Source: an uncultured Gammaproteobacteria bacterium (GTDB taxonomy: Bacteria; Pseudomonadota; Gammaproteobacteria; SURF-13). Taken from it: a stretch of DNA of 53,428 nucleotides. Each line of letters begins with the position of its first letter. The first letter of the stretch is position 1. The notes under the pieces are model-generated. The model searched no databases. It was not told the DNA's origin and saw nothing but the letters and a program-made list of their open reading frames with translations. The stretch lies in contig CAWUTX010000021.1 of NCBI GenBank assembly GCA_963925015.1, forward strand, positions 1-53,428, written 5' to 3'. Position numbers and translations under genes: made by a program. This document shows positions 2,317 through 42,257 of this stretch, piece by piece.

Positions 2317-3057
2317 TTACTGCGGCGCTACCATCATCAATGGCTTGAGCGTGGTGAGCAGGCTTTTGAACAGGCCTTTGTTGGTGCCCTCTTCCCCGGC
2401 GAGTAATTCTTTCAGGTGTTGGCGCTGCATCGGCATGCTGAAGCAGGCGGGGCAGTTGTCGCGGATTACGGGGAGTTGGGCGGCGGTGGCGAAATCCCTG
2501 AGCTGGCGTTCGCGCGCGTACACCAGCGGGCGGATTACGCGCACGTCGCCTGCGTCATTCAGATAGTGCGCCTGCATAGTGCGCAGCTTGCCGCCGTGAA
2601 AGGCGGACATGAGAAAGGTCTCGGCGAGATCGTCGAGATGCTGCGCCAGCGCGAGCACGTTGTAGCCCTCCTTGCGCGCGGTGGCGTAGAGCACGCCGCG
2701 CTTCATGCGCGAGCAGTAGGCGCAGAACGAATTGTTGTCCATGTTCTGTTTGGCCTGCTCCATGATCGCCTGGCTGCGGTAAAAATACGGCACGCCGAGA
2801 TCACTCATCACCTGCTTGAGTGGCGACGGGTCGAAGCCTTCGACCTGCGGGTCCACGGTTACGGCGCCGAGTTCGAAGCGCACCGGCGCACTCTTCTGCA
2901 AGTGCAGGAGAATATGCAGCAGCGACAGCGAGTCCTTGCCGCCGGAGACGCCGAGCAGCACACGGTCGCCCTCGCGGATCATGTCGAAGTCGGCAATCGC
3001 TTTGCCTGCGTGGCGCAGTAACGGTTTGGGTGGTTTTTTTAGCACTGAGGAGTTCAT
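2317..3057 (-). CDS. ttcA: PP-loop ATPase, tRNA 2-thiocytidine synthetase TtcA family
   Basis: SGGKDS PP-loop, GKAIADF.MI.EGDR N-terminus, CAYCSR.KRG and CP.C cysteine motifs. Collinear with E. coli TtcA from memory, though shorter (246 aa). Confidence 0.8.
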   Translation of the reverse strand: MNSSVLKKPPKPLLRHAGKAIADFDMIREGDRVLLGVSGGKDSLSLLHILLHLQKSAPVRFELGAVTVDPQVEGFDPSPLKQVMSDLGVPYFYRSQAIMEQAKQNMDNNSFCAYCSRMKRGVLYATARKEGYNVLALAQHLDDLAETFLMSAFHGGKLRTMQAHYLNDAGDVRVIRPLVYARERQLRDFATAAQLPVIRDNCPACFSMPMQRQHLKELLAGEEGTNKGLFKSLLTTLKPLMMVAPQ

Positions 3058-3078
3058 TAGTAAGGCGACATCTCCGTT

Positions 3079-3128
3079 ACGTCCCCGCCCCCTGTTGAGG
3101 GGGTGGGACAGGGTGGGGGTAGAGTAAA
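3079..3128 (-). repeat. G-rich REP-like repeat, copy 1 (reverse complement of the 31362-31439 copy)
   Basis: ACGTCCCCGCCCCCTGTTGAGGGGG...GGGGGTAGAGTAAA is the reverse complement of TTTACTCTACCCCC...CCCCCTCAACAGGGGGCGGGGACGT at 31362-31439. Confidence 0.85.
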
Positions 3129-3139
3129 GACAAGGTTTT

Positions 3140-3190
3140 CACTAAGAAGAAAAAATAAGCGATGCCCGCTTACTTTGTTTCTTCTTAGTG
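3140..3190. repeat. long low-GC hairpin (about 24 paired positions) adjacent to the G-rich REP
   Basis: CACTAAGAAGAAA (3140-3152) pairs with TTTCTTCTTAGTG (3178-3190). The inner stem is TAAGCG/CGCTTA. It is homologous to the hairpin at 31297-31353. Confidence 0.8.
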
Positions 3191-3242
3191 TGTGCATCAT
3201 GCTATTTTACGCACTTCAGGTCGCCGCCGAAACAGGCGCTTT

Positions 3243-3436
3243 AGGGCACCTCTAAAAATGATGGATTTTGCTTCAAGACAAGGCGCAGCGCAGGCGAGCA
3301 GCGGTCGCTCCTGCGCGTCCTGCGGCCGCGACATTCGTACGTCCCTGTACAGCACAGCATACACGTTAGTATGTGAGCAGCGGAGACAAGCTGTAACGCC
3401 GTATTGGAGCAAAAGACGCATTTTTAGAGGTGCCCT
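3243..3436. mobile_element. 194-bp MITE-like element with perfect 18-bp terminal inverted repeats
   Basis: AGGGCACCTCTAAAAATG at 3243-3260 and its exact reverse complement CATTTTTAGAGGTGCCCT at 3419-3436. There is no credible ORF inside. The interior holds a diverged copy of the 55-bp module (3303-3358). Confidence 0.7.
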
Positions 3437-5046: not shown

Positions 5047-5835
5047 GTGACACTTCCACGCATCTATGTCCCCCTTCCGCTACGCAGCGGAGAAACCGTC
5101 ACCCTTGATAAACAGGCCGAGCAGCACTTGGTACGCGTGCTGCGGCTTGCGCCGGGTGATGCACTCACCGTGTTTAATGGTCAGCCATTTAATGACCGCT
5201 ACGGTGAGTATCAGGCCACCTTGCTGGGCTCAAACGGCGCGGTGAGGGTCGGTGATTTCATCGCGCGCGACACCGAGTCTCCGCTCCACATCACGCTCGC
5301 ACAGGCCATATCGCGCGGCGAGCGCATGGACTACGCGGTGCAGAAAGCGGCTGAACTGGGCGTGACGCAGATCGTGCCGCTGGTCACCGAATTCTGTGTG
5401 GTCAAGATGGTCGCTCCCGGCATCCTGCCTCCCGCGACACTAGCACGTCCCTGTGCGTCACAGGACAAGCGCAAAGGCAAGCGCGTCGCCCATTGGCAAG
5501 GCATTGCGACTTCCGCCTGCGAGCAATCGGGCCGTGTGCGTGTGCCCGGCGTGAGCGCGCCACAGACCTTCGGTGAGTGGCTGCTCACGGTAAATGCCAG
5601 CGTCAAACTTGTGCTTGATCCGCTGGCGCAGACCACGCTGCGGCAATTACCAGCGCCTCAAGGCGACATCGTGTTGCTGGCCGGTCCCGAAGGTGGCCTG
5701 AGCGATGCGGAGGTCGCGCTGGCTACACGTGCAGGCTTCACGCCCGTGCGCCTGGGGCCGCGCATCCTGCGCACCGAAACCGTTCCCGCCGCCGCGCTGG
5801 CCGCGATGCAAATCTTGTGGGGCGATTGGATGTGA
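5047..5835 (+). CDS. rsmE: 16S rRNA (uracil1498-N3)-methyltransferase RsmE, carrying an in-frame repeat-derived insertion
   Basis: GTG start. Collinear with E. coli RsmE from memory (PRIY, ...RVLR..PGD, ESPL...L.QA.SRGERMD...QK..ELGV..I.PL, ACEQSGR.RVP, GPEGGLS..E, LGPRILRTET). It is 262 aa versus 243 because of an extra ~18 aa at 5409-5464. Confidence 0.9.
   Translation: MTLPRIYVPLPLRSGETVTLDKQAEQHLVRVLRLAPGDALTVFNGQPFNDRYGEYQATLLGSNGAVRVGDFIARDTESPLHITLAQAISRGERMDYAVQKAAELGVTQIVPLVTEFCVVKMVAPGILPPATLARPCASQDKRKGKRVAHWQGIATSACEQSGRVRVPGVSAPQTFGEWLLTVNASVKLVLDPLAQTTLRQLPAPQGDIVLLAGPEGGLSDAEVALATRAGFTPVRLGPRILRTETVPAAALAAMQILWGDWM
5409..5464 (+). repeat. 55-bp dispersed module, copy B (inside the rsmE coding sequence)
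   Basis: GGTCGCTCCCGGCATCCTGCCTCCCGCGACACTAGCACGTCCCTGTGCGTCACAGG. By hand alignment it is about 90% identical to 5876-5932 and about 75% identical to 3303-3358. Confidence 0.85.
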
Positions 5836-5842
5836 AAACCCT

Positions 5843-7503
<1,661 letters not shown>

Positions 7504-8430: not shown

Positions 8431-8457
8431 AATCAATCGAGTCTGACCCTATTGATT
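8431..8457 (+). repeat. REP (RAYT-associated family), copy 1
   Basis: AATCAATCGAGTCTGACCCTATTGATT has a 7-bp AATCAAT/ATTGATT stem. The same unit flanks the RAYT gene at 38390 and 39164. Confidence 0.8.
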
Positions 8458-17907: not shown

Positions 17908-18054
17908 TTACATAGCGCCTTAAATCTACTGCGCGTCTTTGATGCGGGTGCGTGCGGTGCTCCGAATCCTCATGTACTGAAATGTACACTCCGGTTCCTG
18001 CGCTCCGCACCCCCCGCCTGAAAGCCGCTCGCTACGATTTATGACGCTATGTTA
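17908..18054 (-). mobile_element. MITE, family with TIR TTACATAGCGCC, copy 2 (inverted, lacks the 55-bp module)
   Basis: TTACATAGCGCC (17908-17919) and TGACGCTATGTTA (18042-18054). The reverse complement aligns with 5843-6053 over both arms (e.g. GGAGCGCAGGAACCGGAGTGTACAT, GAGCACCGCACGCACCCGCATCAAAGACGCGCAGTAGATTTA). Confidence 0.8.
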
Positions 18055-18078
18055 ATCTCAAAGCCGATCTTTAGGCGG

Positions 18079-22816: not shown

Positions 22817-23221
22817 ATGGAAACGATTCTGGCAATCAACACCGACCTCAAGTACGTCGAATACCTGTTACATGTATTGGATACTTATCCAGACGCAACG
22901 ACTCTCAAGACAATACGGGAAGAATTTGAAAAACGATTTTCAACGCGACACGTACTATTGAATCAGAACTTCGGAATCTACAGGCTGCTACCGCTCATCC
23001 TCATAAAAGAGGAACACAAAAAGGACAGAAAAGATCTGGCAGGAGTAATCGAGCAGATTAAGGTCATACGAGATTCTATCGCTCATAATAGCTTTTCAAT
23101 CGACGAGAATGGGTATCACTTCAAGAATGACAAGAGGAGTATCTCTCTGACATATGAGCTTCCCCCTGTTTTCCGTCTTCCAAAGGGCGGGGTTCATGCT
23201 GCCAAGTTCTGCCCGTGCTGA
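22817..23221 (+). pseudogene. low-GC orphan ORF with an R-x4-H (HEPN-like) motif, 3' end replaced by the IS3 terminus
   Basis: 113 native codons (to 23154) contain IKVIRDSIAHNSF, i.e. an R..x4..H motif in a helical context. From 23155 the reading frame runs through the IS3 left inverted repeat (tail ELPPVFRLPKGG...). Confidence 0.45.
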
Positions 23222-25606: not shown

Positions 25607-25673
25607 CTGCTTCCTCCGCTTGCATCTATCTTATCCGCTTACCATTGGAAGACGAAATTCGAGGGGAAGCTCA

Positions 25674-31361: not shown

Positions 31362-31439
31362 TTTACTCTACCCCCCCCCTCCCCCCGTTCAACCCGGGGG
31401 CAGGCTCTGCCCCGCCCCCTCAACAGGGGGCGGGGACGT
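31362..31439 (+). repeat. G-rich REP-like repeat, copy 2 (longer form, contains C10 and C6 runs)
   Basis: TTTACTCTACCCCCCCCCCTCCCCCC...CCCCCTCAACAGGGGGCGGGGACGT. Both ends match the reverse complement of 3079-3128. Confidence 0.85.
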
Positions 31440-31501
31440 GTAGGAGAGTGTAGTCTTACATTACTGACTTATGAGTAAATCTGACCCACGATGGAGGGGC
31501 C

Positions 31502-38377: not shown

Positions 38378-38389
38378 CGTCCGGTTAGG

Positions 38390-38416
38390 AATCAATGGGG
38401 TCAGACTCGATTGATA
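38390..38416 (-). repeat. REP, copy 2 (inverted, upstream flank of RAYT)
   Basis: AATCAATGGGGTCAGACTCGATTGAT is the reverse complement of the unit at 39164-39190. Confidence 0.85.
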
Positions 38417-38468
38417 TTGGATTGAAAACGCAGTACAGTGCCTATTCCTATGAAGCTGGAGGCAGGCA

Positions 38469-39179
38469 ATCGCGCGCTTACCTAAATTTCTGATTCCAGG
38501 CCAACCGCAACATGTCATCCTGCGCGGCAACAACCGTACAGAAATCTTCTGTGCCGACGCAGACTACCGTTTCTATCTTGAAAAGTTACAGTTAGCCTGC
38601 GACTACCACGGCTGTGATGTTCATGCCTATGTACTGATAACCAACCACGTACATTTACTCATCACACCACACGAAGAACAAAGCCTTCTAAAAGCCATGC
38701 AAATGCTGGGGCGTTACTATGTGCAGTACTTCAACTACTGCTACCAGCGCACGGGCACCCTGTGGGAAGGCCGCTATAAAGCCACCCTGATTGATACCGA
38801 AGCCTACCTGTTGACGCGCATGCGCTACATAGAGTTAAATCCGGTACGGGCAGGCATGGTTTCACACCTGACTGAGTATCCTTGGTCAAGTTATCATCAC
38901 AATGCCTTTGGTCAGCCCAATGATTTGGTGACGTCGTATCTTGAATATCGCCGTTTGGGCAAGACCGACGCAGAGCGTCAGGCAGCCTACCGCCAGCTAT
39001 TCAGGCATCACATACCTGAAAAAAGTATCACTGAAATCAGGGAAGCGACTAATAAAGCCTGGGTGTTCGGCAATGATCGGTTCAAGCAACGCATTCAAAA
39101 GCGATTGGAGAGACGAGTTGAGCCGGGAGCCAAGGGTGGGGATAGAAAATCAGAACAATTCAGAATCAATCGAGTCTGA
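38469..39179 (+). CDS. REP-associated tyrosine transposase (RAYT, IS200/IS605-like HUH Y1 transposase); no canonical start codon
   Basis: Frame open from 38454. ARLPKFLIPGQPQHVILRGNNR, HUH motif in YVLITNHVHLLIT, TLWEGRYK, catalytic-Tyr region MRYIELNPVRAGMV, YPWSSY. Where relatives have MARLPR, this copy reads A-I(ATC)-A-R-L-P. The nearest upstream ATG (38450) is in another frame and stops after 11 codons. The first in-frame ATG (38697) would delete the HUH motif. Confidence 0.8.
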   Translation: MARLPKFLIPGQPQHVILRGNNRTEIFCADADYRFYLEKLQLACDYHGCDVHAYVLITNHVHLLITPHEEQSLLKAMQMLGRYYVQYFNYCYQRTGTLWEGRYKATLIDTEAYLLTRMRYIELNPVRAGMVSHLTEYPWSSYHHNAFGQPNDLVTSYLEYRRLGKTDAERQAAYRQLFRHHIPEKSITEIREATNKAWVFGNDRFKQRIQKRLERRVEPGAKGGDRKSEQFRINRV

Positions 39180-39190
39180 CCCCATTGATT
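39164..39190 (+). repeat. REP, copy 3 (downstream flank of RAYT, supplies its last codons and stop)
   Basis: AATCAATCGAGTCTGACCCCATTGATT. RAYT ends ...RINRV* inside it. Confidence 0.85.
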
Positions 39191-41078: not shown

Positions 41079-41104
41079 AATCAATGGGGTCAGACTCGAT
41101 TGAT
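41079..41104 (-). repeat. REP, copy 4 (inverted)
   Basis: AATCAATGGGGTCAGACTCGATTGAT, identical to copy 2. Confidence 0.85.
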
Positions 41105-41107
41105 ATT

Positions 41108-41244
41108 ATAAAGCCTGGGTGTTGGGCAATGATCGGTTCAAGCAACGCATTCAAAAGCGATTGGAGAGATGAGTTGAGCCGGGAGCCAGGGGCGGGGGGA
41201 TAGAAAATCAGAACAATTCAGAATCAATCGAGTCTGACCCCATT
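41108..41244 (+). pseudogene. internally deleted RAYT/REP unit: duplicate of the last ~110 bp of RAYT plus REP copy 5
   Basis: ATAAAGCCTGGGTGTT.GGCAATGATCGGTTCAAGCAACGCATTCAAAAGCGATTGGAGAGA...GAAAATCAGAACAATTCAGAATCAATCGAGTCTGACCCCATT matches 39052-39190 with only a few differences. Confidence 0.85.
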
Positions 41245-41625
41245 TACAACCAACCCATGCACGCGCTTAAATTCTTTGCTATTCGCTGTGACCACGCCAT
41301 AACCATAGGCAATAGCCGTCGCCGCAATAATTCGATCATGTGCCCCTACCGCCCCGCGCGGCAACTCAGCACACATTTGGGCATGAATTCGTGCCACATC
41401 AGCATCGAAGATCAGGGCAGGTAATATAGACAATATATATTCGACGAAGGCAGAGCGTTTTACACGCTGCGCTTTCGTCGTTGCCTTGTATACGCCTACC
41501 AGCAATTCGGATACCGTGATAACGCTGATATAAACCGCCTCATCCTGAGCCCAGGATTTGGAATTAAACGGCAACCCGCGCTGCTCTGAGTCAATGAGTA
41601 CACTCGTATCTAAAATTAATCCCAT
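41224..41625 (-). CDS. vapC: PIN-domain toxin VapC
   Basis: ILDTSVLI (first Asp), TVSEL (Glu), HDRIIAATA (Asp) PIN signature. It overlaps the upstream antitoxin by 10 nt. Confidence 0.85.
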   Translation of the reverse strand: MGLILDTSVLIDSEQRGLPFNSKSWAQDEAVYISVITVSELLVGVYKATTKAQRVKRSAFVEYILSILPALIFDADVARIHAQMCAELPRGAVGAHDRIIAATAIAYGYGVVTANSKEFKRVHGLVVNGVRLD

Positions 41626-42224: not shown

Positions 42225-42226
42225 AT

Positions 42227-42255
42227 TTGGAAGACGAAATTCGAGGGACAGCTCA
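42227..42255 (+). mobile_element. solo IS3-family right inverted repeat (remnant)
   Basis: TTGGAAGACGAAATTCGAGGGACAGCTCA versus TTGGAAGACGAAATTCGAGGGGAAGCTCA at 25645-25673 (27/29 identical, same orientation). Confidence 0.8.
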
Positions 42256-42257
42256 TT

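Follow-up and report, generated by a model that had tools for sequence, protein, structure and literature searches.

The decoration of essential proteins, in frame, by palindromic repeats is best known from Rickettsia and has been seen as a peculiarity of reductive intracellular genomes. The Rickettsia palindromic elements (RPEs) are about 100-150 bp long and are confined to Rickettsia (review, PMC10969869). Repetitive extragenic palindromes (REPs) can also lie inside open reading frames (ORFs), including those for UvrA, polymerases and tRNA synthetases (Di Nocera et al. 2013, PMC3733652). Here we describe a 51-nt module that lies in frame in rsmE, the gene for the 16S rRNA m3U1498 methyltransferase, on a contig of an uncultured gammaproteobacterium (GenBank assembly GCA_963925015.1, contig CAWUTX010000021.1; the whole stretch analyzed, 53,428 nt, is called the window). 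The surplus stretch of this rsmE gene is very probably one copy of a non-autonomous mobile DNA module inserted in frame. Like the RPEs, the module is a small palindromic mobile repeat that is found in frame in unrelated housekeeping genes, adding a peptide to a protein that is otherwise intact, and in both cases a large fraction of the copies is intragenic (PMC10969869). It is set apart from the RPEs by its description: it is only 51 nt long, its carriers are Gammaproteobacteria of many orders or other metagenome-assembled genomes (MAGs) outside Rickettsia, it has three covarying helices, and its flanks are biased toward YG^CAGG. A first-pass annotation of the sequence had pointed to the resemblance to RPEs, which stands as a functional analogy and not as membership in that family; by the same kind of analogy, the module appears to be a counterpart of both the RPE and the intragenic-REP phenomena. 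The same outcome is thus met here in free-living sulfur- and methane-cycling Gammaproteobacteria, brought about by a 17-codon element that is conserved across orders.

The boundaries of the module in rsmE are set by an empty site. (RsmE homologue proteins are designated by P-numbers and loci from the genome collection by L-numbers.) The locus of homologue P0003, L117, reads GTC AAG ATG|CAG GAC, and the window reads GTC AAG ATG, then 51 nt, then CAG GAC. Because L117 lacks precisely these 51 nt, the module corresponds exactly to positions 5410-5460 (Table 1); it starts with GTCGCT and ends with GCGTCA, no target sequence is duplicated and no host bases are lost. The first-pass annotation had correctly recognized a dispersed module in frame in rsmE, but its span of about 55 nt was too long, in that it took in the G of the ATG codon at its start and, at its end, the CAGG of the host codons for Gln-Asp. 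It was likewise right that the module encodes the surplus of RsmE, which amounts to 17 residues rather than 18.

The RsmE protein of the window is 262 residues long, from a GTG start codon at 5047. The insert breaks its match to PF04452 into two stretches, and the alignment to Escherichia coli RsmE (PDB 4E8B; E=3.4e-50) has a 17-residue gap at the insert, between D120 and S121. The annotation had asked whether the segment is lineage specific, and a comparison of 120 RsmE homologues shows that it is: VAPGILPPATLARPCAS is present at the window site only in the window protein, P0001 (99% identical) and P0002 (88%), and is lacking there in P0003 (93% identical), P0004 and the remaining homologues; besides P0003 and P0004, 114 homologues are without the segment. 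In an AlphaFold (AF2) model of the window protein, which has a mean pLDDT (predicted local distance difference test) of 88.6, residues 122-137 have values below 50 and belong to a loop that leads from strand 108-113 to helix 137-161; elsewhere the protein is modeled with confidence. Placement in a loop had been expected, and both the model and the gap relative to 4E8B accord with it. All of the invariant RsmE residues are kept. From the model, the insert is predicted to form a disordered loop of the SPOUT domain, with the catalytic motifs left intact.

The window site is one of three separate insertion sites among the RsmE homologues, namely ATG|CAGGAC (the window), CTG|CAAGAA and TCG|CAACTC. 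The other two insertions are those of P0016 (L118), where the module follows YQATL, and P0033 (L121). The insertion in P0016 is recent, since P0009 is 95.6% identical and has no insert. The module has thus entered RsmE three times independently.

Table 1. Module copies, their hosts and flanks, and a transposase gene in the window
Feature	Positions	Strand	Remarks
51-nt module, in-frame insertion in rsmE (copy 1)	5410-5460	+	Encodes VAPGILPPATLARPCAS, residues 122-138; covariance model 77.7 bits
rsmE, 16S rRNA m3U1498 methyltransferase gene, host of the module	5047-5835	+	Pfam PF04452 and PF20260; PDB 4E8B
Left target flank, ATG	5407-5409	+	Matches the YG preference at -2/-1
Right target flank, CAGGAC (host codons Gln-Asp)	5461-5466	+	Found in the empty site
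Copy 2, 52 nt (one extra A), non-coding, in MITE A	5877-5928	+	Covariance model 74.4 bits
MITE A, host of copy 2	5842-6052	+	Inverted matches to 17909-18055; alignment
MITE B, sister copy of MITE A without module	17909-18055	-	Unoccupied site GGCTT T CAGGCG
Copy 3, more diverged, P2 stem of GCGC type, in another MITE	3304-3354	+	Covariance model 58.9 bits
192-bp MITE, host of copy 3	3244-3435	+	17-nt terminal inverted repeats GGGCACCTCTAAAAATG; sequence reading and search for terminal inverted repeats
Y1_Tnp/RAYT-like HUH tyrosine transposase gene	38454-39179	+	PF01797 E=1.5e-12; NCBIfam REP_Tyr_transpos 71.8 bits against a cutoff of 80

Two more copies of the module lie in the window, where the first-pass annotation had placed them (5876 and 3303), and all three copies fall within 2.6 kb. 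An exact pattern with gaps, derived from the three copies themselves, GGTCGCTC-N14-19-CGCGACA-N4-6-ACRTCCCTGT, matches the window at 3303-3348, 5409-5454 and 5876-5922 only and has no match in 100 shuffles. The same three were grouped as one family (D4) by a repeat search of the window, and a covariance model run with filters off returned exactly these three, the next match reaching 12 bits. [quoted passage not shown] Copy 2 differs from the rsmE copy by four substitutions and one 1-nt insertion inside the unit; of the five substitutions and one indel counted earlier, the fifth substitution appears only when a longer span is compared. As the annotation had also noted, the sister element MITE B is cleanly without the module, and relative to it copy 2 is a clean insertion in MITE A. 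MITE A with the module inside is found in two other genomes as well (L049 and L081). MITEs related to the host of copy 3 occur in L024 and L007 with the module at another position and in another orientation, and so these insertions are separate from copy 3. The L117 empty site and the MITE copies together uphold the view that a small module has entered both a coding sequence, in frame, and other mobile elements.

To gauge the spread of the family we scanned a collection of species-representative genomes. The module was found in at least 116 loci from about 70 assemblies (counted by record titles), mostly of basal Gammaproteobacteria. The carriers include Acidiferrobacterales, Sulfurifustaceae, 'Muproteobacteria', Sedimenticola, Thiohalophilus, Thiohalomonadaceae, Ectothiorhodospiraceae, Woeseiaceae, Methylovulum, Methylomonas, Dokdonella, Rudaea, Lysobacterales, Solimonas, Porticoccaceae, the isolate Marinobacterium litorale DSM 23545 and one Rhodocyclaceae MAG. 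Searches of PLSDB plasmids, GenBank phages and IMG/VR gave no copy, and no covariance model of Rfam 15 matched any copy, even at E<=10. The searchable literature contained neither the sequence of the module nor its peptides, and both are likewise missing from the Di Nocera catalogue of intragenic REPs and its supplement. A search for a split or autonomous form yielded partial matches in L110 (in the mreB-mreC region) and L040, both of which are ordinary intergenic fragments. Copies were also seen on contigs binned to Klebsiella (L055, labeled as a Klebsiella pneumoniae MAG) and to Planctomycetales, Poribacteria, Binatia and Phycisphaerae (L014, L054, L084 and L087); at least some of these are probably gammaproteobacterial contigs that were mis-binned, rare transfers being the alternative.

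The module is well defined in both length and fold. Exactly 51 nt are found in 101 of 124 copies, and the layout is GTCGC-TCC(C)-[P2 hairpin, loop TCC]-(C)TCC-GCGAC-AYTNG-[NNAC-RTCCCT-GTNN]-NTCR. Helix P1 (GTCGC/GCGAC) encloses P2, a hairpin of variable stem with the loop TCC; P3 (NNAC-RTCCCT-GTNN) is followed by the tail NTCR. RNAalifold recovered P1 and P3. One P3 pair is UA in 51 sequences versus CG in 42, another is GC in 87, AU in 4 and CG in 4, and P1 changes from GTCGC/GCGAC to GCCGC/GCGGC and GCCAC/GTGGC. P2 was misaligned by MAFFT because of indels, and a direct hairpin search brought out its compensating stems (GGCA/TGCC, GACA/TGTC, GCGCA/TGCGC, GGCCA/TGGCC, GCACAT/ATGTGC and others), whose mean length is 3.95 bp versus 2.32 bp in shuffles. 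In a model-guided alignment of 146 copies, which leans toward the model, compensatory changes are seen in 10 of 13 pairs; doubly changed cells number 141, as compared with 37.6 in shuffles, none of 500 shuffles reaches 141, and sliding the pair partners abolishes the signal. The minimum-energy fold of the rsmE copy as single-stranded DNA (ssDNA) is the same structure (-10.7 kcal/mol, z = -3.07). Three helices are thus supported by covariation. Wobble-pair asymmetry carries no information on the folding strand except at the R-T pair closing P3 (AU in 50 sequences, GU in 41), which may simply be loop.

The 3' hairpin drawn in the first-pass annotation, GTCCCTGTG-CGT-CACAGGAC, is not the conserved one, GCAC-GTCCCT-GTGC: it borrows CAGGAC from the host, and it competes with P3 only in the rsmE context. 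It may still be a sign that the loop is complementary to the preferred CAGG target. Elsewhere, 57-nt tandem repeats (L031, 1080-1240; L060, 2999-3090) join the P3 hairpin (reverse strand, GTACAGGGACGTAC) to a different one, which suggests that the hairpins are exchangeable modules.

The flanks of the module are biased in sequence. The base at -1 is G in 90 of 118 copies (76%) and that at -2 is a pyrimidine in 93 (79%); downstream, positions +1 to +4 are CAGG in 12 copies versus 0.7 expected (17-fold), and 37 copies match CAGG at three or more of the four positions versus 7.4 expected. Conservation at each of these positions is 41-79%. The module therefore inserts preferentially at YG^CA(G)G without duplicating its target. 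Indeed, there is no duplication at any of the four resolved empty sites, which are the three in rsmE and AGG|CAGGAT, the P2 region of another copy of the module in inverse orientation. Self-nesting gives rise to 102-nt model matches in L041, L062, L011, L030 and L086; copies also occupy the loops of GTAG REPs (L018, L026 and L080) and other MITEs, and head-to-tail arrays are found in L090, L082 and L093. The array in L093, a Sedimenticola MAG, consists of six progressively diverged copies with a period of 52-53 nt (2826-3141). In the loops of P2 and P3, the conserved TCCTG/TCCCTG is complementary to CAGGA, the preferred target. This complementarity, read from the sequences, may be a lead toward target recognition by base pairing.

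The in-frame insertion in rsmE has many parallels. When copies were tabulated as coding or intergenic, as the annotation had proposed, 47 of 134 near-full-length copies (35%) proved to be in frame in ORFs that are 150 aa or longer and have a coding-type GC periodicity. Four of the six frames of the module are free of stops, and all four are used by coding copies: R2 (peptide xDAQGRASVAGGRMPGAT) in 23 copies, F0 (VAPGILPPATLxxPCxS) in 14, R1 (xxYRDVxVSREAGxRERP) in 6 and F1 (GRSRHPASRDTxTSLxx) in 4. A length of exactly 51 nt is found in 45 of the 47 coding copies versus 67 of the 87 non-coding copies, a difference in keeping with selection to keep the reading frame intact, and so with translation. 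Hosts confirmed by Pfam are MutL (in the inter-domain linker), ValRS, Tex (after the S1 domain), PcnB (two copies), ArgB, GcvT, NadE, UvrA (between domains), MetH (two tandem copies), GcvP and CysS (between the catalytic and DALR domains). Having 17 codons and four stop-free frames, insertions in surface loops or linkers can survive as 17-residue additions. They amount to a natural experiment on which loops of conserved enzymes (MutL, ValRS, UvrA, MetH, RsmE and others) tolerate a fixed 17-residue insertion. At the same time, identical blocks of 51 nt or 17 residues in unrelated genes can mislead alignment and binning, a warning for MAG annotation and phylogenomics.

Occupancy is patchy even among close relatives. 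In rsmE, the filled allele of the window is less distant from the empty allele of L117 than from the filled one of L119 (informative sites 71, 29 and 30), and the two sides of the insert agree in this. The neighboring nfeD gene places the window with L119, in conflict with the rsmE topology, so that recombination has to be reckoned with in dating the rsmE insertion. To explain the pattern, the module must have been lost seamlessly or inserted twice at one site, or else recombination must have occurred. L119 also has a DDE_Tnp_IS1595 transposase gene (2587-3372) between the ATP synthase operon and ttcA, where the window has none.

How might such a module move? We put forward, tentatively and at rather less than even probability, that it is mobilized in trans as ssDNA by a hairpin-recognizing enzyme of the HUH/Y1 type and excised seamlessly. 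The module, which folds as a single strand into P1, P2 and P3, inserts preferentially between YG and CA(G)G without target duplication and often in hairpins of other repeats, itself included; its TCCTG-type loops may pair with a CAGGA target. The lack of target duplication and the patchy alternation of filled and empty sites speak for a seamless step involving ssDNA, and the proposal is modeled on REP-RAYT systems, hairpin recognition included, and on elements of the IS200/IS605 family, which excise precisely and choose their targets by base pairing (PMC5027513, PMC3201880). That the module stands for an unusual class, combining vertical persistence across many gammaproteobacterial orders, near-invariant nucleotides at ancient orthologous sites, seamlessly reversible loops, pairing with CAGGA through TCCTG loops and a conserved host-encoded ssDNA enzyme, we would consider unlikely.

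Several observations count against a selfish module that moves in this way. At orthologous sites the module is far more conserved than its flanks, which would not be expected of an insertion that is purely selfish and decaying. The copies of the window and L119 differ at 1 of 51 positions, in an rsmE gene that is 86% identical (p about 0.004), and the hsdM copies of Methylovulum (L008, 7776-7826) and Methylomonas (L111, 649-699), which have an unusual P2 loop in common, are identical at 50 of 51 positions between flanks that are 79-80% identical (p about 1.6e-4). The near absence of synonymous change points to constraint on the nucleotides rather than on the peptide, or to homogenization or re-insertion, and in view of it one may ask if such repeats are wholly selfish. 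The flanking motif, at 45-79% conservation per position, is weaker than the near-invariant target of IS608. A tblastn search of all loci (0.9 Mb) with E. coli RAYT (REP-associated tyrosine transposase) and Salmonella IS200 TnpA found no transposase linked to the module; the three RAYT genes that it did find are each 2-3 kb away from a copy and have GTAG REPs of their own on their flanks. The genes next to the copies show no recurrent family, all-against-all clustering of 939 ORFs from the loci having given only housekeeping families. Finally, strand bias judged from the local GC skew of 8-kb tiles, a weak proxy, was not significant (71 versus 52, p=0.10). The Y1_Tnp gene of the window (Table 1) is unsupported as the mover: the inverted repeats of 26-42 nt on its two sides (AATCAATGGGGTCAGACTCGATTGAT, at 38383-38424 and 39156-39190) are unrelated to the 51-nt module, and the gene has no orthologue in the other loci.

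That gene has no canonical start codon before 38697. More copies of its flanking repeat lie at 8431-8456, 41079-41104 and 41221-41250, and a duplicated fragment of its 3' end at 41108-41244 is 96-100% identical to 39052-39186.

Might the module instead be a bona fide REP or REPIN (a hairpin-forming doublet of REPs), an ordinary member of the REP-RAYT systems that is mobilized by a cognate RAYT? Like REPs, bacterial interspersed mosaic elements (BIMEs) and REPINs, for which mobilization by HUH Y1 enzymes is presumed, it is a short, G+C-rich, hairpin-forming repeat that is chromosomal and present in high copy number. Its absence from the plasmid, phage and viral collections is consistent with vertical persistence, intragenic REPs are documented (PMC3733652), and a Y1/RAYT-like gene is present within the window. 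In its architecture, however, the module is a fixed 51-nt composite of two unlike hairpins and not a symmetric, inverted REP doublet. GTAG REPs carry GTAG at the foot of a palindrome of 20-40 bp, whereas the tetranucleotide by P1 and P3 is variable in the module (AYTNG forward) and is neither GTAG nor CTAC. CGTC REPs have a terminal CGTC, an 8-9 bp stem that begins with A-T pairs, a loop of 4-5 nt and a CCA tail (PMC3733652); about half of the module copies have CGTC-like bases after P3, but the module has a 4-bp stem, RTCCCT as its loop and no CCA tail. Moreover, REPs of these systems flank a cognate, single-copy RAYT gene, whereas the module flanks none of the RAYT genes in the loci, and the RAYT genes found in carriers have other REPs, of the GTAG type, at their sides. 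A REP family is usually restricted to one species or genus, unlike the module, whose sequence is conserved across orders and which, with its peptides, is missing from the Di Nocera catalogue. Altogether, ordinary REP-RAYT membership is in our judgment unlikely.

Rather more doubtful is that the module is a palindrome-associated derivative of an insertion sequence (IS) of the IS200/IS605 family, moved by the TnpA of that element via peel-and-paste. With IS608 and ISDra2 it shares the lack of target duplication and the hairpins near both ends; its ends are exact, a preferred short sequence tends to abut one of them, and its patchy occupancy is compatible with precise excision. IS608 reads its target by base pairing with transposon DNA (PMC3201880, PMC5934647). 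In the module, by contrast, the complementarity lies in the loops rather than at the foot of a hairpin, the abutting motif is less strict and only partly conserved, and the two hairpins are unlike each other. Neither a full-length or parent IS with the ends of the module nor an IS200 TnpA gene was found in the 0.9 Mb around the copies, and no strand bias was detected by local GC skew, weak proxy as it is. Classical MITEs, with terminal inverted repeats (TIRs) and target-site duplications (TSDs), differ from the module in that its ends (GTCGCT…/…GCGTCA) are not inverted repeats and in that none of the four resolved sites is duplicated. Elhai and colleagues have reportedly described small dispersed repeats of about 21-27 nt in cyanobacteria, in MITEs, other repeats and genes; the module is like these in being very small and nested in MITEs, other repeats and genes, and it differs in phylum, sequence and structure. 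Because it departs from the RPEs in length and host, and fails the sequence definitions of GTAG and CGTC REPs and of TIR/TSD MITEs, we class the module as a fixed, 17-codon, three-helix variant that is conserved across orders.

The excess conservation at orthologous sites would be accounted for if the module were a structured motif of function to the host, such as a DNA- or RNA-binding site or a regulatory hairpin, that is under selection and whose dispersal is secondary. The covarying structure and the conservation of the sequence across orders also favor such a role. It is difficult to reconcile with the presence of the module in both orientations and in four reading frames of unrelated genes, with self-nesting and tandem arrays, with clean filled/empty polymorphism among close relatives and with the absence of any Rfam match, and we regard it as improbable, more so than descent from an IS200/IS605 element. 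Local gene conversion or duplication between 5409 and 5876 alone, in keeping with the clustering of the three window copies within 2.6 kb, is refuted by the at least 116 loci elsewhere and by independent insertions in other RsmE homologues and dozens of other genes, and retains practically no probability. Hence, neither of the two outcomes that the first-pass annotation had said would count against its view was found.

We know of no identified mover of CGTC-type REPs or of RPEs. The mobile module described here, being compact and well defined, offers a substrate with which to find the enzyme that moves such repeats.

Finally, we note two further repeat families in the window. A G/C-rich hairpin repeat (CCCCGCCCCCTGTTGAGGGGGTGGG), REP-like or terminator-like and located just downstream of ttcA, is present at 3071-3111 and, in inverse orientation, at 31407-31447. 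A dispersed repeat of about 32 nt (ATGAGCTTCCCCCTGTTTTCCGTCTTCCAAAGG) occurs in mixed orientation at 23154-23186, 25642-25673 and 42226-42256.

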